Assembly (NCBI RefSeq): GCF_050920415.1
Contig: NZ_CP169309.1
Source of the DNA: Escherichia coli
GTDB lineage: Bacteria; Pseudomonadota; Gammaproteobacteria; Enterobacterales; Enterobacteriaceae
DNA: 64,000 bases
Strand: one strand, 5' to 3'
Of the stretch, positions 1 through 20,153 are shown in pieces; within the stretch, counting starts at the first letter, position 1, and each line of letters starts with the position of its first letter. A program made the translations under genes and the position numbers. The notes beneath the pieces were generated by a model. The model ran no database searches and had not been told where the DNA came from. It saw only the letters and a program-made list of their open reading frames with translations.

Positions 1-1047
<1,047 letters not shown>

Positions 1048-1171
1048 AAAAGTTTGATGCTCAAAGAATTAAACTTCGTAATGAATTACGTGTTCACTCT
1101 TGAGACTTGCTATTCATTTTTCGTCTTGCGACGTTAAGAATCCGTATCTTCGAGTGCCCACACAGATTGTC

Positions 1172-1191
1172 TGATAAATTGTTAAAGAGCA
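1172..1191 (-). promoter_or_regulatory. rrn leader boxA antitermination element
   Basis: Minus-strand TGCTCTTTAACAATTTATCA in the 16S leader, matching the rrn boxA consensus. Confidence 0.8.
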
Positions 1192-1231
1192 GTTGCGACG
1201 CGGCTTTCAGCTCACTGTCGCGAGTTGGCGT

Positions 1232-1259
1232 ATATTACGCTTTCCTCTTTCAGAGTCAA
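1232..1259 (-). promoter_or_regulatory. rrn P2 promoter
   Basis: Minus-strand TTGACT, 16-nt spacer, TAATAT, about 190 nt upstream of the mature 16S 5' end. Confidence 0.8.
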
Positions 1260-1332
1260 CCCTGAATTTCAGGATTTTTCTCTTCAACCGAACCGGCTGT
1301 TTGTGTGAAGTGATTCACATCCGCCGTGTCGA

Positions 1333-1395
1333 TGGAGGCGCATTATAGGGAGTCGTTTCAGGAAGACAAGCGGAAAAATGCATTTTTATTTCAAC
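1333..1395 (-). promoter_or_regulatory. rrn P1 promoter with A/T-rich UP element
   Basis: Minus-strand CTTGTCT-N16-TATAATGCGCC (near-identical to the rrnB P1 core and GC-rich discriminator), preceded by an A/T-rich block (AAATAAAAATGCATTTTTCC). Confidence 0.85.
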
Positions 1396-1412
1396 CGCTC
1401 ATCTTTTAATCA

Positions 1413-1985
1413 TTACGCCGGTTTTTGCTGCTTTTTTATCGCTTGCGGCAGGTCTGCCAGGCTATTTAACACCCAATCCGCCGCGTTTTCTGCTTCAGGC
1501 GTAATAGGTTTTCCCGTACGCACCAGCACTTTTGTTCCCACGTTCGCCGCAGCCGCTGCCTGCATATCTTCTAATTTATCGCCCACCATATAAGAAGCAG
1601 CCATATCAATATGTAAATAATCGCGTGCTGACAAAAGCATCCCCGGATGTGGTTTGCGGCAATCGCAGACCTGACGAAACTCTTCAACACTACCCTGCGG
1701 ATGATGCGGGCAATAATAGATGCCATCCAGATCGACATCGCGGTCCGCCAGCGACCAGTCCATCCACTCGGTCAGCGTTTCAAACTGTGCTTCAGTAAAT
1801 TTACCGCGAGCAATGCCAGACTGGTTGGTTACTACCACCAGCGCAAAGCCCATTTTTTTTAGCTCGCGCATGGCGTCAATAACACCGTCGATAAATTCAA
1901 AGTTGTCGATCTCATGGACATAGCCGTGATCGACATTAATGGTGCCATCACGGTCAAGAAAAATTGCGGGTACGCTCTTCGCCAC
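1413..1985 (-). CDS. gmhB: D-glycero-beta-D-manno-heptose-1,7-bisphosphate 7-phosphatase (HAD family)
   Basis: 190-aa [20 protein letters not shown]... with HAD motif DxDGT. GTG start. Lies immediately upstream of the rrn promoters. Confidence 0.95.
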
Positions 1986-2172: not shown

Positions 2173-3204
2173 ATGATAAAACTTTCGAATATCACCAAAG
2201 TGTTCCACCAGGGCACCCGCACCATCCAGGCGTTGAACAACGTCAGCCTGCATGTGCCAGCTGGACAAATTTATGGCGTTATCGGTGCCTCAGGCGCGGG
2301 TAAAAGTACGCTTATCCGTTGTGTAAACCTGCTGGAGCGCCCAACCGAGGGTAGCGTGCTGGTCGATGGTCAGGAACTGACCACGCTGTCAGAATCCGAG
2401 TTGACCAAAGCTCGCCGCCAGATTGGTATGATTTTCCAGCATTTTAACCTGCTCTCTTCGCGCACTGTTTTTGGCAACGTGGCACTGCCGCTGGAGCTGG
2501 ACAACACGCCGAAAGACGAGATTAAACGTCGCGTGACAGAATTACTGTCATTGGTTGGTCTTGGCGATAAGCATGATAGTTACCCGTCTAACCTTTCCGG
2601 TGGGCAGAAACAACGTGTGGCGATTGCCCGTGCGTTAGCCAGCAATCCCAAAGTATTGCTGTGTGATGAGGCCACCAGCGCGCTGGACCCGGCAACAACA
2701 CGTTCTATTCTCGAACTGCTGAAAGACATCAATCGTCGTCTGGGTTTGACGATTCTGTTGATCACCCACGAAATGGACGTTGTGAAGCGCATTTGTGATT
2801 GCGTGGCGGTGATCAGTAATGGCGAGTTGATCGAGCAGGACACGGTAAGTGAAGTGTTCTCGCATCCGAAAACGCCGCTAGCGCAGAAGTTTATTCAGTC
2901 GACCCTGCATCTGGATATCCCGGAAGACTATCAGGAACGACTGCAAGCGGAACCATTCGCTGACTGCGTGCCGATGCTGCGTCTGGAGTTTACCGGTCAA
3001 TCGGTCGATGCCCCGCTTCTTTCTGAAACCGCGCGTCGTTTCAACGTCAATAACAACATTATTAGCGCGCAGATGGATTACGCCGGTGGCGTTAAGTTCG
3101 GCATCATGCTGACTGAAATGCACGGCACACAACAAGATACGCAAGCCGCCATTGCCTGGCTGCAGGAACACCATGTAAAAGTAGAGGTACTGGGTTATGT
3201 CTGA
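2173..3204 (+). CDS. metN: Methionine ABC transporter, ATP-binding subunit
   Basis: 343-aa ORF with Walker [10 protein letters not shown] and ABC signature LSGGQKQRV. Overlaps metI by 8 nt. Confidence 0.97.
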
Positions 3205-3850
3205 GCCGATGATGTGGCTGCTGGTTCGTGGCGTATGGGAAACGCTGGCAATGACCTTCGTATCCGGTTTTTTTGGTTTTGTGATTGGTCTGCCGGTTGG
3301 CGTCCTGCTTTATGTCACGCGTCCGGGGCAAATTATTGCTAACGCGAAGCTGTATCGTACCGTTTCTGCGATTGTGAACATTTTCCGATCCATCCCGTTC
3401 ATTATCTTGCTGGTATGGATGATTCCGTTTACTCGCGTTATTGTCGGTACATCGATTGGTTTGCAGGCAGCGATTGTTCCGCTGACAGTTGGTGCAGCAC
3501 CGTTTATTGCCCGTATGGTCGAGAACGCTCTGCTGGAGATCCCAACCGGGTTAATTGAAGCTTCCCGCGCAATGGGTGCTACGCCGATGCAGATCGTGCG
3601 CAAAGTGCTGTTACCGGAGGCGTTGCCAGGTCTGGTGAATGCAGCAACTATCACCCTGATTACTCTGGTCGGTTATTCCGCAATGGGTGGCGCAGTCGGT
3701 GCCGGTGGTTTAGGTCAGATTGGCTATCAGTATGGCTACATCGGCTACAACGCGACGGTGATGAATACGGTACTGGTATTGCTGGTCATTCTGGTTTATT
3801 TAATTCAGTTCGCAGGCGACCGCATCGTCCGGGCTGTCACTCGCAAGTAA
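3197..3850 (+). CDS. metI: Methionine ABC transporter permease
   Basis: 217-aa hydrophobic ORF in the metNIQ arrangement. Confidence 0.96.
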
Positions 3851-3889
3851 CGTTCAACACAACATAAATAATTGAAGAAGGAATAAGGT

Positions 3890-4705
3890 ATGGCGTTCAA
3901 ATTCAAAACCTTTGCGGCAGTGGGAGCCCTGATTGGATCACTGGCACTGGTAGGCTGCGGTCAGGATGAAAAAGATCCAAACCACATTAAAGTCGGCGTG
4001 ATTGTTGGTGCCGAACAGCAGGTTGCAGAAGTCGCGCAGAAAGTCGCGAAAGACAAATATGGCCTGGACGTTGAGCTGGTAACCTTCAACGACTATGTTC
4101 TGCCAAACGAAGCATTGAGCAAAGGCGATATCGACGCCAACGCCTTCCAGCATAAACCGTACCTTGATCAGCAACTGAAAGATCGTGGCTACAAACTGGT
4201 CGCAGTAGGCAACACTTTTGTTTATCCGATTGCTGGTTACTCCAAGAAAATCAAATCACTGGATGAACTGCAGGATGGTTCGCAGGTTGCCGTGCCAAAC
4301 GACCCAACTAACCTTGGTCGTTCACTGCTGCTGCTGCAAAAAGTGGGCTTGATCAAACTGAAAGATGGCGTTGGCCTGTTGCCAACAGTTCTTGATGTTG
4401 TTGAGAACCCAAAAAACCTGAAAATTGTTGAGCTGGAAGCACCGCAGCTGCCGCGCTCTCTGGACGATGCGCAAATCGCTCTGGCGGTTATCAACACCAC
4501 CTATGCCAGCCAGATTGGCCTGACTCCGGCGAAAGACGGTATCTTTGTCGAAGATAAAGAGTCTCCGTACGTAAACCTGATCGTGACGCGTGAAGATAAT
4601 AAAGACGCAGAGAACGTGAAGAAATTCGTCCAGGCTTATCAGTCTGACGAAGTTTACGAAGCAGCGAACAAAGTGTTTAACGGTGGCGCTGTTAAAGGCT
4701 GGTAA
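3890..4705 (+). CDS. metQ: Methionine-binding lipoprotein (ABC substrate-binding protein)
   Basis: 271-aa ORF with lipoprotein signal ...LALVGC. NlpA-family binding protein. Confidence 0.96.
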   Translation: MAFKFKTFAAVGALIGSLALVGCGQDEKDPNHIKVGVIVGAEQQVAEVAQKVAKDKYGLDVELVTFNDYVLPNEALSKGDIDANAFQHKPYLDQQLKDRGYKLVAVGNTFVYPIAGYSKKIKSLDELQDGSQVAVPNDPTNLGRSLLLLQKVGLIKLKDGVGLLPTVLDVVENPKNLKIVELEAPQLPRSLDDAQIALAVINTTYASQIGLTPAKDGIFVEDKESPYVNLIVTREDNKDAENVKKFVQAYQSDEVYEAANKVFNGGAVKGW

Positions 4706-4822: not shown

Positions 4823-5227
4823 ATGCGTGCTTTACCGATCTGTTTAGTAGCACTCATGCTAAGCGGCTGTTCCATGTTAAGCAGATCCCCTGTCGAACCC
4901 GTTCAAAGCACTGCACCCCAGCCGAAAGCGGAGCCTGCAAAACCGAAAGCACCGCGCGCCGCGCCGGTCCGAATTTATACCAATGCAGAAGAATTAGTCG
5001 GCAAACCATTCCGCGATCTCGGTGAAGTCAGTGGCGATTCTTGCCAGGCCTCTAATCAGGACTCTCCGCCGAGCATTCCAACCGCGCGTAAGCGGATGCA
5101 AATCAATGCCTCTAAAATGAAAGCCAATGCGGTATTACTGCATAGCTGCGAAGTTACCAGCGGTACGCCAGGCTGCTATCGTCAGGCTGTATGTATCGGT
5201 TCTGCGCTTAACATTACGGCGAAATGA
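4823..5227 (+). CDS. rcsF: Outer-membrane lipoprotein RcsF (Rcs phosphorelay sensor)
   Basis: 134-aa ORF with lipobox ...MLSGC and a Pro/Ala/Lys-rich linker. Overlaps the next gene by 4 nt (ATGA). Confidence 0.95.
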   Translation: MRALPICLVALMLSGCSMLSRSPVEPVQSTAPQPKAEPAKPKAPRAAPVRIYTNAEELVGKPFRDLGEVSGDSCQASNQDSPPSIPTARKRMQINASKMKANAVLLHSCEVTSGTPGCYRQAVCIGSALNITAK

Positions 5228-5931
5228 GCAGTTTCCAGTTCGAGCAAATAGGCGTTATTCGCTCGCCCTATAAAGAAAAATTCGCCGTTCCGCGCCAGCC
5301 AGGTCTGGTAAAAAGCGCCAACGGTGAACTGCATCTCATTGCTCCCTACAACCAGGCCGACGCCGTACGCGGCCTGGAGGCGTTCAGCCATTTATGGATA
5401 CTTTTCGTCTTTCATCAAACGATGGAAGGCGGCTGGCGCCCAACTGTGCGTCCGCCTCGTCTTGGTGGTAATGCCAGAATGGGCGTTTTCGCCACACGCT
5501 CTACTTTCCGTCCTAATCCGATTGGTATGTCGCTGGTAGAGCTGAAAGAGGTTGTTTGCCATAAAGACAGCGTGATTCTGAAGCTTGGCAGTCTGGATCT
5601 GGTCGATGGGACGCCAGTGGTGGATATCAAACCGTATCTCCCCTTTGCCGAATCGCTTCCCGATGCCAGCGCCAGCTATGCGCAAAGTGCACCAGCGGCA
5701 GAGATGGCGGTGAGTTTTACCTTAGAGGTCGAAAAGCAGCTTTTGACACTGGAGAAGCGATATCCGCAGTTAACGCTGTTTATCCGCGAAGTACTGGCGC
5801 AGGACCCGCGTCCAGCCTATCGTAAAGGTGAGGATACGGGCAAAACCTATGCCGTCTGGCTGCATAATTTTAACGTTCGCTGGCGCGTCACCGACGCTGG
5901 TTTTGAAGTCTTTGCGCTGGAACCGCGTTAA
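5224..5931 (+). CDS. trmO: tRNA (adenine37-N6)-methyltransferase TrmO (YaeB/TsaA family)
   Basis: 235-aa ORF MSSFQFEQIGVIRSPYKEKFAVPRQPG..., YaeB family. Confidence 0.93.
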   Translation: MSSFQFEQIGVIRSPYKEKFAVPRQPGLVKSANGELHLIAPYNQADAVRGLEAFSHLWILFVFHQTMEGGWRPTVRPPRLGGNARMGVFATRSTFRPNPIGMSLVELKEVVCHKDSVILKLGSLDLVDGTPVVDIKPYLPFAESLPDASASYAQSAPAAEMAVSFTLEVEKQLLTLEKRYPQLTLFIREVLAQDPRPAYRKGEDTGKTYAVWLHNFNVRWRVTDAGFEVFALEPR

Positions 5932-6041
5932 ATTCGCGCCCTTCTCTTTTGACATTTCTTTTGCACTGGTAAACTAAATCACTTTTTTTGTCCCAGGCTC
6001 GCCTTGAGCCTGCTCTACCTTCCAACTGGAACCGTAACAAC

Positions 6042-7760
6042 ATGCGTACTAGCCAATACCTGCTCTCCACTCTTAAGGAGACACCTGCCGACGCCGAGGT
6101 GATCAGCCATCAGCTGATGTTGCGCGCCGGGATGATCCGCAAGCTGGCCTCCGGGTTATACACCTGGCTGCCGACCGGCGTGCGCGTTCTGAAAAAAGTC
6201 GAAAACATCGTGCGTGAAGAGATGAACAACGCCGGTGCGATCGAGGTGTTAATGCCGGTGGTTCAGCCATCTGAACTGTGGCAAGAGAGTGGTCGTTGGG
6301 AACAGTATGGCCCGGAATTGCTGCGTATTGCTGACCGTGGTGACCGTCCGTTCGTACTTGGCCCAACTCATGAAGAAGTGATTACCGACCTGATTCGTAA
6401 CGAGCTGAGCTCTTACAAACAGCTGCCGCTGAACTTCTATCAGATCCAGACCAAGTTCCGTGATGAAGTGCGCCCGCGTTTCGGCGTCATGCGTTCCCGC
6501 GAATTCCTGATGAAAGATGCTTACTCTTTCCATACCTCTCAGGAATCCCTGCAGGAAACCTACGATGCAATGTATGCGGCCTACAGCAAAATCTTCAGCC
6601 GCATGGGGCTGGATTTCCGCGCCGTACAGGCCGATACCGGTTCTATCGGCGGCAGCGCCTCTCACGAATTCCAGGTGCTGGCGCAGAGCGGTGAAGACGA
6701 TGTGGTCTTCTCCGACACCTCTGACTATGCAGCGAACATTGAGCTGGCAGAAGCTATCGCGCCGAAAGAACCGCGCGCTGCTGCTACCCAGGAAATGACG
6801 CTGGTTGATACGCCGAACGCGAAAACCATCGCTGAACTGGTAGAACAATTCAATCTGCCGATTGAAAAAACGGTTAAGACTCTGCTGGTTAAAGCCGTTG
6901 AAGGCAGTAGCTTCCCGCTGGTTGCGCTGCTGGTTCGCGGTGACCACGAGCTGAACGAAGTTAAAGCTGAGAAACTGCCGCAGGTTGCAAGCCCGCTGAC
7001 TTTCGCGACTGAAGAAGAAATTCGTGCCGTGGTTAAAGCCGGTCCGGGTTCACTGGGTCCGGTAAACATGCCGATTCCGGTAGTAATTGACCGTACTGTT
7101 GCGGCGATGAGTGATTTTGCTGCTGGTGCTAACATCGATGGCAAACACTACTTCGGTATCAACTGGGATCGCGATGTCGCAACCCCGGTAGTTGCGGATA
7201 TCCGTAACGTAGTGGCTGGCGATCCAAGCCCGGATGGACAGGGTACGCTGCTGATCAAACGTGGTATCGAAGTCGGTCACATCTTCCAGCTGGGTACTAA
7301 GTACTCCGAAGCACTTAAAGCCTCCGTTCAGGGTGAAGATGGCCGTAATCAGATCCTGACTATGGGTTGCTACGGTATCGGCGTAACGCGCGTAGTAGCT
7401 GCGGCAATTGAGCAGAACTACGACGAACGCGGCATCGTATGGCCTGACGCTATCGCACCTTTCCAGGTGGCGATTCTGCCGATGAACATGCACAAATCCT
7501 TCCGCGTACAGGAGCTGGCTGAGAAACTGTATAGCGAACTGCGCGCACAGGGTATCGAAGTGCTGCTGGATGACCGCAAAGAACGTCCGGGCGTGATGTT
7601 TGCTGATATGGAACTGATCGGTATTCCGCACACTATCGTGTTGGGCGACCGTAACCTCGACAACGACGATATCGAATACAAATACCGTCGTAACGGTGAG
7701 AAACAGTTAATTAAGACCGGTGACATCGTCGATTATCTGGTGAAACAGATTAAAGGCTGA
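6042..7760 (+). CDS. proS: Prolyl-tRNA synthetase
   Basis: Protein [20 protein letters not shown]... The track ORF begins 18 codons upstream at a TTG; the ATG at 6042 matches the known N-terminus. Confidence 0.96.
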
Positions 7761-8642: not shown

Positions 8643-8660
8643 GCCGGAGAATGCTCCGGC
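8643..8660. terminator. Hairpin between convergent yaeF and nlpE (possible bidirectional terminator)
   Basis: GCCGGAG-AATG-CTCCGGC perfect 7-bp stem in a 29-bp convergent spacer. Flanking T-tracts are weak. Confidence 0.45.
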
Positions 8661-8666
8661 ATTCAA

Positions 8667-9377
8667 TTACTGCCCCAAACTACTGCAATCCTGGTTTGGG
8701 TAAAATTTACCTGCCGTATCGGGCGCTAATACTTTGGTTGGCGCACCGTTATCCGGATTAGTCTCAAGCGTAAAGTGACCTTCTACTGACAGTAACACCG
8801 GTTTTTCACTGTTACCGCGCGCAGCCAGGTAGCTACGCTCCAGCTCTGCATTATTCGCTACCATGAAACGTTTTCCGGTCGCACAATCAGTAAAGGTTGC
8901 CGCATCAGCCATATAAAAATACATGCCGCGTAGAGTCATCGGCGTCACTGGCAGGCTGGATTTTGCCGGTTCCAGTGTATAGTTGAACTGCGATTCGATC
9001 GGATTGCCTTCACGATCGAGCATCTCCAACGCATCTCCTTTCGCCCGATAATATGACTTTTCACCTTTACTGTCGGTTAATACCAGTTTGTCAGCGGTTC
9101 GCGCCCATGTACCGTAGGAGGCGAAAGAGAAAGGTTCTTCACGAGCCCCCAGATAACGCTCATTCATCACCCAGGTTCCATCTTTTTCGAGGAACAGAGA
9201 GGTTTCGATACCTTCGCAATCAGCACACGGCAGCACGCCGCGCCAGCTTTGCGGCATCGGCTTCAGTTCAGCGGCCTGCGCCGGAGAAAGCGTATCGACT
9301 TCGGCTCGATTATTACATCCCATCAGAGTAAAGAGGCTGATTACAGCCATCGCTGTCACTATCGCTTTTTTCACCAT
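8667..9377 (-). CDS. nlpE: Outer-membrane lipoprotein NlpE (Cpx pathway activator)
   Basis: 236-aa ORF MVKKAIVTAMAVISLFTLMGC... with lipobox and a CxxC motif (CADC). Confidence 0.95.
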   Translation of the reverse strand: MVKKAIVTAMAVISLFTLMGCNNRAEVDTLSPAQAAELKPMPQSWRGVLPCADCEGIETSLFLEKDGTWVMNERYLGAREEPFSFASYGTWARTADKLVLTDSKGEKSYYRAKGDALEMLDREGNPIESQFNYTLEPAKSSLPVTPMTLRGMYFYMADAATFTDCATGKRFMVANNAELERSYLAARGNSEKPVLLSVEGHFTLETNPDNGAPTKVLAPDTAGKFYPNQDCSSLGQ

Positions 9378-9390
9378 CCATTCCTTCTTT

Positions 9391-9813
9391 TTATTCCCGA
9401 CCGCCGCGCACTTTGCCGCGCAACGCCTTCACGCTTGATTTTTGTGCTTTCGATACCAGCCTGCGCTCTTTTGATGCGCGGGTAGGTCGTGTCGGTCGTC
9501 GGGCTTTTTGTTCTGTTGTTAATTCTTTAATCACTGCCACCAACCGTGCCAGCGCCGCTTCGCGGTTCAGTTCCTGGCTACGGTATTCCTGTGCCTTGAT
9601 GACTATCACTCCATCGCTGCTAATCAGATGATGGCTGGCAGCGAGCAGGCGCTCTTTGTAATACTCTGGCAGGCTGGACGCTCGAATGTCAAAACGCAGA
9701 TGAATAGCCGTTGAGGTCTTATTAACATGCTGTCCGCCCGCGCCCTGTGCACGAATAGCAGTGATCTCAAACTCGCCATTGGGGATAGCAACATGTCGGG
9801 AAATCACAATCAT
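9391..9813 (-). CDS. arfB: Alternative ribosome-rescue factor / peptidyl-tRNA hydrolase ArfB (YaeJ)
   Basis: 140-aa ORF with GGQ motif (AGGQHVNKT) and a basic C-terminal tail. Overlaps the yaeQ stop by 4 nt. Confidence 0.95.
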
Positions 9814-10355
9814 GAAGGTTGTTGCCAGACGGTTAAGTTCACTTCCAGATTATTCTTGTCATCCGATAACCAGATCACGCCATCCTGAATCGTTGCCTGC
9901 AGCGTCATGGTACGATCGGCAAAGGCGCTCACTTTTGCCAGTTGCTCGTCGTCCAGATACCAGACGGAAAGATTGGCAAACTGCGCACATTTACTCTGAT
10001 TTTGCTGCCACCAGATTTGCGCCGCCCGACTATTATAGGCAAACAGCGCCACTTCTGCGGCCTGGGTGCAGGCTTTCTTAATCCGCCGCTCATCCGGCAA
10101 TCCCAGTTCAATCCACAAATCAATGCCCAGATGATCATTACGCAGCCACGCTTCCGGCTCATCATCGGCACACAAACCTCGGGTAAATTGCAGACGTTCA
10201 TCAGCATATTTCAGCCACGCCAGCAGGCGCAGCATCATGCGCTCCTGGGTTTCTGAAGGATGGCGCGCCAGCGTCAGAGAGGCATCGAGAAACTGGTTGC
10301 GGTCGAGATCGGCCACATTAACCGTCGCTTTATAAATTGTCGCTTTAAGCGCCAT
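9810..10355 (-). CDS. yaeQ: YaeQ family protein (PD-(D/E)XK-like fold, function unknown)
   Basis: 181-aa [24 protein letters not shown]..., conserved enterobacterial YaeQ. Confidence 0.9.
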
Positions 10356-10520
10356 AAGAAAACTCCTTTCGAATCAGGAGGCCATTGTAACGGAATACGT
10401 GCAGTTGCGACGCTGATATTGCAGAAATGAGTGTGGTATAGTCACCTTGCGAAACAGAGTTTATCTTCGTAGGCTTAGACTTGCATCCACGGTTAAGTCA
10501 GAGTGCTGACAGGAGGGCAT

Positions 10521-10721
10521 GTGGAAAAATATTGTGAGTTAATACGCAAGCGGTACGCGGAAATCGCCAGCGGAGACTTAGGATACGTTCCGGACGCGCT
10601 GGGCTGCGTTTTGAAAGTGCTGAATGAAATGGCTGCCGACGATGCCCTTTCTGAGGCTGTCAGGGAAAAAGCAGCATACGCTGCGGCAAACTTACTGGTG
10701 AGCGATTATGTCAATGAATGA
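10521..10721 (+). CDS. yaeP: Small conserved protein YaeP (UPF0253)
   Basis: 66-aa protein from a GTG start ([12 protein letters not shown]...). The track ORF begins 6 codons upstream at an ATG. 3' end overlaps rof. Confidence 0.8.
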
Positions 10722-10968
10722 TACGTATCAACCAATCAATTGTGATGATTACGATAATCTTGAGCTCGCCTGCCAGCATCATTTAATGCTGACACTTGAG
10801 CTGAAAGATGGCGAAAAATTGCAGGCGAAGGCCAGCGATTTAGTCTCCCGCAAAAATGTGGAGTATCTGGTCGTCGAGGCCGCTGGTACAACCCGCGAAC
10901 TGCGTCTGGATAAAATTACCAGCTTTAGCCACCCGGAAATCGGTACGGTGGTGGTGAGCGAGTCCTGA
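10714..10968 (+). CDS. rof: Rho-binding antiterminator Rof (YaeO)
   Basis: 84-aa protein [23 protein letters not shown]... An alternative ATG lies 2 codons upstream at 10708. Confidence 0.9.
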
Positions 10969-10976
10969 TTGACTTT

Positions 10977-11009
10977 CGCCGGATGCGACGTTTGATGCGT
11001 CTTATCCGG
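10977..11009. repeat. REP (repetitive extragenic palindrome) between convergent rof and tilS
   Basis: GCCGGATGCGACG...CGTCTTATCCGGC palindromic unit matching the REP consensus. Confidence 0.65.
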
Positions 11010-11020
11010 CTTTCACTTAA

Positions 11021-19556: not shown

Positions 19557-20153
19557 TCAGGACGCAAGTCCCAGTGCGCGTTTGACAGGCCCAAAGCTGC
19601 GACGATGATGTTCAGTCGCGCCATATTCAGCCAGTTTTTCCAGATGAAAAGCGGTTGGATACCCTTTGTGCTGGGCAAAACCATATTGCGGGAAAACAAT
19701 ATCCAGCGCCGCCATTTCAGCGTCGCGCGTCACTTTCGCCAGGATAGACGCAGCACTGATTTCCGGTACGCGGCTATCGCCTTTCACCACTGCCATCGAA
19801 GGCATCGGTAATTTTGGGCAGCGGTTACCATCAATCAACACATATTCCGGCGCAATATGCAGCCCCGCGACGGCGCGCTGCATCGCCAGCATGGTCGCGT
19901 GTAAAATATTCAGTTCGTCGATTTCGTGGGGTTCCGCGCGGCCCAGACTCCAGCTTAACGCTTTCTCTTTGATCTCTTCACAGAGCGCCAGACGGCGTTT
20001 TTCGCTCAGCTTTTTGGAATCATTCAGCCCGGCAATCGGGCGCGTCGGGTCAAGGATTACAGCAGCGGTAACCACCGCGCCAACCAACGGCCCGCGTCCA
20101 ACTTCATCCACACCCGCAACCAGCTGCGTGTGTGGATAAACAAATTCGATCAT
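19557..20153 (-). CDS. rnhB: Ribonuclease HII
   Basis: 198-aa ORF with RNase HII motif ([12 protein letters not shown]). 4-nt overlap with lpxB. Confidence 0.96.

Follow-up and report, generated by a model that had tools for sequence, protein, structure and literature searches.

In Escherichia coli, the stop codon of yaeQ overlaps the start codon of arfB, placing a protein with a nuclease-like fold directly ahead of a ribosome-rescue factor. Does this arrangement reflect a shared role of YaeQ and ArfB in the handling of stalled translation, or simply the joint expression of two genes whose products are functionally unrelated? The locus was examined in a window of 64,000 nucleotides, the whole stretch of E. 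coli DNA that was analysed. A sequence-only reading of this DNA had taken the overlap to imply co-translation and had raised, as a speculation, a link between YaeQ and quality control of translation or termination.

The yaeQ gene (9810–10355, minus strand) encodes a 181-residue member of the YaeQ family (PF07152) with a PD-(D/E)XK-like fold. The family is also listed as COG4681. Residues 1–173 align to positions 1–172 of the 173-position Pfam model (E=1.3e-71), and 3 substitutions separate the protein from the crystallised E. coli YaeQ (3C0U), one of four structures known for the family together with 2G3W, 2OT9, and 7TCB. The downstream gene, arfB (also known as yaeJ; 9391–9813, minus strand), encodes 140 residues and is identified by its translation, by annotation, and by the NCBIfam ArfB equivalog NF006718, which it matches with 196.9 bits against a cut-off of 100. 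Its translation contains the GGQ motif at residues 26–28 and a basic C-terminal tail rich in Lys and Arg. A third gene of the same-strand cluster, nlpE (8667–9377, minus strand), begins 13 nt past the arfB stop codon and carries its own Shine-Dalgarno (SD) sequence, GAAGGA. The yaeQ-arfB-nlpE transcript likely ends at a terminator-like hairpin followed by a T-run, found 3′ of nlpE (8643–8660, minus strand).

On its other side, yaeQ is separated by a 165-bp intergenic region (10356–10520) from the divergent pair yaeP-rof (10521–10968, plus strand), whose two genes, yaeP (10521–10721) and rof (10708–10968), overlap each other. The divergent arrangement noted earlier is confirmed, and the intergenic region presumably contains the promoters of both operons. 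A consensus scan of the region returned promoter-like sites on the plus strand only, leaving the yaeQ promoter unlocated by this method. An origin of the locus in a defence system or a phage was considered and rejected, as PADLOC gave no hits and the only PHROG match was at chance level.

The window at this locus is E. coli core chromosome. An identical E. coli chromosome is annotated in RefSeq with the same coordinates and gene names, and a 1.8-kb stretch around yaeQ-arfB matches 5424 of the 5426 complete genomes of the species at 95–100% identity, with the annotated order nlpE, arfB, yaeQ, yaeP, rof, tilS. It is the yaeQ-arfB-nlpE operon already described from enterobacteria, and nothing distinguishes it from the published E. 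coli K-12 version, which has the same genes in the same order, the same 4-nt overlap, the same missing SD, and the same divergent yaeP-rof. The overlap and the absent SD are drawn in Fig. 1E of a structural study of Rof (bioRxiv 10.1101/2023.08.30.555460). A role of YaeQ in translation has likewise been proposed from the yaeQ-yaeJ operon, with Salmonella yaeQ as a worked example of the GeCoViz tool (GeCoViz 2022; PMC9252766). Both the observation and the hypothesis of a functional link are already known for the core E. coli locus; as a finding of a genome scan, it describes both of them a second time. New here are the tightness of the junction across Enterobacterales, the loss of arfB in Pectobacteriaceae, pairs in reversed order, and the position of ArfB as the top neighbour of YaeQ across lineages.

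The 4-nt overlap itself is borne out by both the open reading frame listing and the raw sequence. It consists of an ATGA at 9810–9813 on the minus strand (tcat on the plus strand), in which TGA is the stop codon of yaeQ and ATG the start codon of arfB. The strength of each ribosome binding site was estimated from how well the 3′ end of 16S rRNA is predicted to pair with the 20 nt before the start codon. This anti-SD duplex amounts to -10.8 kcal/mol for yaeP, -8.2 kcal/mol for yaeQ (with the SD sequence AAGGAG at 10363–10368, minus strand), and -5.7 kcal/mol for nlpE. For arfB it is -1.5 kcal/mol, weaker than the median of random 20-mers from the window (-2.4 kcal/mol). The 20 nt 5′ of the arfB start codon, which lie within the 3′ end of yaeQ (9814–9833, minus strand), contain neither an SD sequence nor a stable RNA structure. 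Because shuffled versions of the 110 nt around the start codon form more stable folds than the native sequence (z=+1.37), the arfB start is not masked by structure. A dedicated RNA element at the junction was rejected on the same grounds, and no Rfam family was found there. Rfam matches at the locus were confined to naRNA4/REP hits that lie between rof and tilS and score below threshold. A promoter-like site for arfB inside yaeQ was not found by consensus scan, a weak result given that the same scan missed the yaeQ promoter.

The junction combines the features by which termination-reinitiation is recognised: the genes lie on the same strand, stop and start codons overlap, the downstream gene lacks an SD sequence, and the junction is conserved among relatives. 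A translationally coupled arfB is a reasonable interpretation of these sequence features, and to this extent the earlier claim of co-translation stands. Ribosomes finishing yaeQ would restart at the overlapping AUG of arfB, and ArfB would be made mainly by such re-initiation. This mode of translation would tie the synthesis of ArfB to that of YaeQ, at a ratio that is low and fixed. Chromosomal arfB is insufficient for an ssrA arfA double mutant, for which multicopy or over-expressed arfB is needed (PMC3989581; PMC8012679). The re-initiation model fits this behaviour, since the chromosomal copy cannot rescue the double mutant without over-expression.

The overlap does not by itself imply a common function, and this further step is undermined by the window itself. 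Of the 39 adjacent gene pairs that share a strand in its first 50 kb, 8 overlap. Three of these overlaps measure exactly 4 nt, namely those of yaeQ/arfB, rcsF/tsaA, and lpxB/rnhB. The rcsF/tsaA pair joins an envelope-stress lipoprotein to a tRNA methyltransferase, and lpxB/rnhB joins a lipid A synthase to RNase HII; in neither case do the two proteins have a known common function. A further overlapping pair in the window, again of functionally unrelated genes, is mtnN/btuF. The yaeP-rof, rcsF-tsaA, and lpxB-rnhB pairs resemble yaeQ-arfB in their stop/start overlaps of 4–14 nt. Two of them also resemble it in having little or no SD sequence before the downstream gene (-2.8 kcal/mol for rof, -2.1 kcal/mol for tsaA), whereas rnhB, unlike arfB, is preceded by an SD-like sequence (-5.9 kcal/mol). 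Since overlaps are common in the window, and also occur between unrelated genes, overlap alone is weak evidence for shared function.

These overlaps favour the strongest competing explanation, in which the coupling concerns expression only. Both genes would be low-level housekeeping genes, YaeQ would be unrelated to translation or rescue, and the reversed loci described below would result from gene-order drift. The cluster also includes nlpE, which agrees with this explanation, as the product of nlpE is a lipoprotein of envelope stress that is not known to be connected with translation.

YaeQ loci were collected from two sources. One genome per species was searched with an alignment of 20 YaeQ sequences, which yielded the best 80 loci, those most like E. 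coli YaeQ. To offset this preference, an unbiased metagenome scan with degenerate DNA for the motif T-x-A-R-H-P-S-E-T..R added 120 further loci, of which 119 encode YaeQ. In total, 193 YaeQ loci were available for analysis of their neighbourhoods.

Within Enterobacterales, 33 loci were informative, and in 30 of these the gene directly 3′ of yaeQ, in the same orientation, is arfB; five more metagenomic loci have the enterobacterial yaeQ→arfB arrangement. The junction falls between -4 and +7 nt in all 30 loci with arfB (-4 in 21, -1 in 2, and +1 to +7 in 7). SD-like sequences of -4.2 to -6.9 kcal/mol precede arfB in the families with short spacers, among them Yersiniaceae and Hafniaceae, whereas the overlapping junctions lack them. 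In Pectobacterium zantedeschiae, Pectobacterium betavasculorum, and Brenneria roseae, yaeQ is followed directly by nlpE and arfB is gone. Pectobacterium and Brenneria (Pectobacteriaceae) have lost arfB while keeping the adjacent yaeQ, as would be expected if the two genes shared little beyond their expression. YaeQ would not be an obligate partner of ArfB.

Outside Enterobacterales, linkage is the exception. No arfB was found within the fetched flanks, which span several kb, of ~152 of ~158 YaeQ loci (~96%), a figure that also speaks for the expression-only explanation. The remaining six loci have the reverse order, arfB→yaeQ, with arfB immediately upstream on the same strand. The two genes overlap by 11 nt in a tubeworm symbiont (L045) and are separated by 1 nt in a member of the Gallionellaceae (L056). 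The gap is 12 nt, about 40 nt, and about 140 nt in three metagenomic loci (L194, L201, and L134, respectively), and 159 nt in a gammaproteobacterial genome bin (L068). The YaeQ proteins of these six loci are 54–80% identical to one another and 44–49% identical to enterobacterial YaeQ, and form five clusters at 70% identity. In the Gallionellaceae locus, prfC, encoding release factor 3, lies directly upstream of the pair, while in the genome bin rhlE is divergent from it. The YaeQ lineage that includes the Gallionellaceae locus has 21 members, only 2 of which have arfB at the locus.

Gene-order drift accounts poorly for these reversed pairs. The pair recurs in both orders among YaeQ lineages that are 44–68% identical, always on the same strand, mostly within 0–15 nt, and with unrelated flanks. 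If a given single-copy gene is the upstream same-strand neighbour of another about once in 6000 cases, ~0.02 arfB→yaeQ loci would be expected among the 134 informative non-enterobacterial loci, against 6 observed in at least two independent lineages; this estimate is a rough inference rather than a formal test, and controls incompletely for phylogenetic non-independence and sampling bias. Tight operons of arfB and yaeQ have formed at least twice, in opposite orders. By the standards of guilt by association, recurrence in distant lineages and in both gene orders was found, while adjacency as a family-wide rule was not. The adjacency signal is real but facultative. The expectation that the neighbourhood would be conserved holds for Enterobacterales, and extends in reversed form to six distant loci, but fails for the ~96% of loci elsewhere that are unlinked.

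The same loci allow ArfB to be ranked against other neighbours of YaeQ. Open reading frames of at least 90 residues within 1.2 kb of yaeQ were clustered across the 193 loci, and YaeQ lineages, 77 at 70% identity, were counted for each cluster. ArfB ranks first, with 8 lineages and 41 loci; it is encoded on the yaeQ strand in every case, and the gap between the two genes has a median of 2 nt. Second is an RhlE-like DEAD-box RNA helicase, present in 5 lineages and mostly divergent from yaeQ. The remaining neighbours reflect local synteny in at most 3–4 lineages, such as purB, lrgA/lrgB, and a CoA-transferase; likewise, recJ is a local neighbour in Pseudomonas-like loci, and tilS, nlpE, and proS are local neighbours in Enterobacterales. 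The glyoxalase and GNAT neighbourhood described by Steczkiewicz et al. did not recur in this clustering. In Enterobacterales, the VOC-family gene yaeR lies two genes away from yaeQ.

A survey centred on ArfB found no extensive conserved neighbourhood except for a pseudouridine synthase (Burroughs and Aravind; PMC6514570). The absence of a reported YaeQ signal in that survey is a further point for the expression-only explanation. The facultative character of the signal described here agrees with what the survey found from the ArfB side (PMC6514570). Overall, coupling of expression alone is a serious contender, though still a doubtful one, and the recurrence of the pair in both orders speaks against it.

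What YaeQ might contribute depends on its fold. The attribution of a PD-(D/E)XK-like fold is upheld by its structural model (AF2, pLDDT 96), in which a restriction-endonuclease-like alpha-beta-beta-beta-alpha-beta core is recognised with modest structural scores. Conservation was computed over 286 non-identical YaeQ-family sequences. Four residues are invariant (E35, R43, G85, and W115), H32, R39, and W81 are conserved in 99% of sequences, and P33 and S34 in 98%. E66 is found in 91%, with Asp in a further 7%; position 83 is acidic in 94% (Glu in 67%, Asp in 27%); and position 94 is Lys or Arg in 90% (K94 in E. coli). The H32-P33-S34-E35 motif, R39, R43, E66-P67, and E/D83-x-G85 occupy the topological positions of a PD-(D/E)XK site, as mapped by secondary-structure order rather than by residue-level superposition. 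E35 precedes helix A, E66-P67 precedes the second core strand, and E/D83-x-G85 lies at the end of the third, so that by secondary-structure order they correspond to the E, PD, and (D/E)XK elements, respectively.

A lack of nuclease active-site residues had been named in advance as counting against a functional link, and the answer is divided: the acidic residues of a putative nuclease site appear to be conserved, as far as secondary-structure order places them, but the canonical site is absent. The catalytic Lys that characterises the PD-(D/E)XK superfamily is missing, as the residue two positions past E/D83 is Gly (G85) in 100% of the 286 sequences. In its place YaeQ has this invariant Gly, the HPSE motif, and the conserved pair R39 and R43. 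Judged from conservation, R39, R43, or K94 is a possible compensating basic residue. YaeQ may be a variant metal-dependent phosphodiesterase or a nucleic-acid-binding protein, more likely acting on RNA. Fusions to other domains were not seen among the best 150 family representatives, all of which are at most 241 residues long. The census of PD-(D/E)XK proteins lists YaeQ as a superfamily family of unknown function (Steczkiewicz et al.), and it records a disputed account of YaeQ as an rfaH suppressor as well as a tobramycin-tolerance phenotype in Pseudomonas aeruginosa. The literature searched contains no report that YaeQ acts as a nuclease, associates with ribosomes, or has a phenotype in ribosome rescue.

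The preference for RNA has to be weighed against the possibility that YaeQ is a DNA-directed PD-(D/E)XK enzyme of repair, recombination, or a restriction-like process, and that its adjacency to arfB is incidental. Beyond the family, the structures that resemble it most closely are chiefly DNA endonucleases (N.BspD6I, PaqCI, NgoMIV, SdaI, NucS, and HamA), but the fold is also used by RNases, and the CdiA-CT tRNase toxins are among the structural matches. Linkage to recJ, which lies 3′ of yaeQ on the same strand in Pseudomonas-like loci (median 80 nt, n=6), extends to at most two YaeQ lineages. One distant YaeQ gene overlaps a GIY-YIG open reading frame, while hits to PADLOC and phage families were absent. 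The neighbours shared across lineages, ArfB, RhlE, and PrfC, are proteins of RNA metabolism or translation, and a DNA-directed enzyme is accordingly unlikely.

Least probable, by a clear measure of doubt, is that YaeQ acts in transcription elongation or termination and that its neighbours reflect control of transcription-translation coupling instead of ribosome rescue: multicopy suppression of rfaH (Wong et al., 1998, as cited elsewhere), the divergence of E. coli yaeQ from rof, which encodes a Rho inhibitor, the divergence of the tubeworm-symbiont pair (L045) from a homologue of yihE (E=4e-92 to 1ZYL), whose product is another reported Rho inhibitor, and the occurrence of greB two genes upstream in that locus and directly 3′ of yaeQ in L148 and L155 all point this way, but rof, yihE, and greB are each neighbours in one to three lineages only, and it is not obvious what a nuclease-like fold would do in anti-termination.

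The reading favoured here, with a probability of roughly 45%, is that yaeQ and arfB form an operon coupled by re-initiation and that their pairing has been selected. YaeQ, as a variant PD-(D/E)XK protein that is likely RNA-directed, would be an accessory, non-obligate factor in the handling of stalled translation. A facultative functional link between YaeQ and ArfB is plausible on the genomic evidence, and somewhat better supported by the comparison of loci than it was from this sequence alone. A more ambitious proposal would make YaeQ the RNA-handling arm of ArfB rescue, as a variant PD-(D/E)XK ribonuclease or an RNA-binding adaptor. It could trim mRNAs on stalled ribosomes to the short 3′ ends that ArfB needs, or destroy non-stop mRNAs after release. 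Such a role would account for tight operons in both orders, one of which directly follows prfC, and for the second rank of a DEAD-box RNA helicase among the neighbours. In this specific form the proposal is improbable.

The favoured reading, in which yaeQ and arfB are coupled and their pairing selected, bears on several observations. What ArfB does physiologically in E. coli has been called unclear, as chromosomal arfB is no substitute for tmRNA and ArfA (PMC8012679). If re-initiation by ribosomes that have finished yaeQ is the only way in which arfB is translated, its low output would be explained. A yaeQ::kan mutant has a gut-colonisation defect (PMC5847654), and if arfB does depend on re-initiation alone, polar yaeQ insertions such as this one may report the loss of ArfB or NlpE. 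For YaeQ itself, crystal structures, four in number and up to two decades old, have been available without an assigned function. The recurrent, order-independent pairing of arfB and yaeQ offers a concrete hypothesis that can be tested cheaply.

Rescue factors are linked to RNA-processing enzymes in other systems. The tmRNA-SmpB complex recruits RNase R, which destroys the non-stop mRNA. In the case of prfH-rtcB, a rescue factor is linked with an RNA-processing enzyme (PMC6514570). Compared with these two systems, the arfB-yaeQ linkage is facultative, occurring in ~4% of loci outside Enterobacterales. The parallel is a conceptual one: in tmRNA-SmpB/RNase R and in prfH-rtcB, a peptidyl-tRNA hydrolase or other rescue factor has a genetic link to an enzyme whose substrate is the damaged RNA, and arfB-yaeQ may represent a looser association of the same kind.

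Within Enterobacterales, the yaeQ-arfB pair is more stable than the three-gene cluster, as the third position is not consistently occupied by nlpE. No NlpE match was found 3' of arfB in several loci of this order (YaeQ loci L014, L006, L022, L034, and L035), and in L014 yaeF directly follows arfB in place of nlpE (6007-6750; L-numbered coordinates are local to each locus). At this locus, arfB is cleanly gone from between yaeQ and nlpE in two species of Pectobacterium and in Brenneria (L029, L032, and L033, where yaeQ ends near position 5540 and nlpE starts near 5624-5697).

In two of the loci outside Enterobacterales that carry the reversed pair, with arfB preceding yaeQ, a gene for a YihE/SrkA-type kinase or its homologue is found nearby. 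In the tubeworm symbiont locus L045, the kinase gene (895-1953, minus strand; E=4e-92 to PDB 1ZYL) is divergent from arfB-yaeQ, with 96 bp between them, while in the Gallionellaceae locus L056 a homologue (2-589, plus strand) lies ~4 kb upstream of the pair. Inhibition of Rho has been reported for both YihE and Rof, so that there are two arrangements, unrelated to each other, in which yaeQ/arfB adjoins a Rho antagonist. On the other side of rof in the E. coli window, a REP-like palindromic element separates it from tilS (10967-11011). The Rfam naRNA4 matches to this element were sub-threshold on both strands, at 23 bits versus a gathering score of 59.5.

Genes for translation and transcription factors also accompany yaeQ. 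In L056, arfB-yaeQ is immediately preceded by prfC, which encodes release factor 3 (2719-4365, plus strand) and has the same orientation, giving a run of three genes for termination, rescue, and YaeQ; prfC is absent at that position in the related metagenomic locus L194. In two loci from metagenomes (L148, 3555-3926; L155, 7279-7650), the gene that immediately follows yaeQ, in the same orientation, is greB-like and encodes a transcript-cleavage factor, and in L045 greB is two genes 5' of arfB-yaeQ. Across lineages, the second most recurrent yaeQ neighbor encodes an RhlE-like DEAD-box RNA helicase, mostly divergent and within ~1 kb of yaeQ (L051, L068, L086, L089, and L147). Some of these helicases share just ~40% identity between loci and are thus different paralogs.

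Other neighbors are nuclease genes. In L083 and L084, whose YaeQ is distant (34% identity to the query), an ORF of 100 aa with a GIY-YIG nuclease domain (723-1025, plus strand) overlaps the 5' end of yaeQ (1007-1555) by 19 nt, forming a tandem of two nuclease-fold genes. In Pseudomonas-like loci, recJ, encoding a single-stranded-DNA exonuclease, follows yaeQ in the same orientation, with a median of ~80 nt separating the two genes (L092, L098, L118, L184, L192, and L202). The family extends past Proteobacteria, as YaeQ (COG4681/PF07152) has been reported as a gene featured in rapidly growing mycobacteria (PMC10551460); the present survey also retrieved L078, a locus from Nitrospirae.

Stop/start overlaps of 4 nt occur elsewhere in the window. 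One joins lpxB (lipid-A disaccharide synthase) and rnhB (RNase HII), a pair of unrelated functions (20150-20153, minus strand). Another joins rcsF (4823-5227), an envelope-stress lipoprotein gene, to the tRNA-modification gene tsaA (5224-5931) at 5224-5227 on the plus strand; tsaA lacks a Shine-Dalgarno sequence (-2.1 kcal/mol for the predicted anti-SD duplex). The rcsF-tsaA arrangement mirrors that of arfB followed by nlpE, itself an envelope-stress lipoprotein gene, a few kb away.
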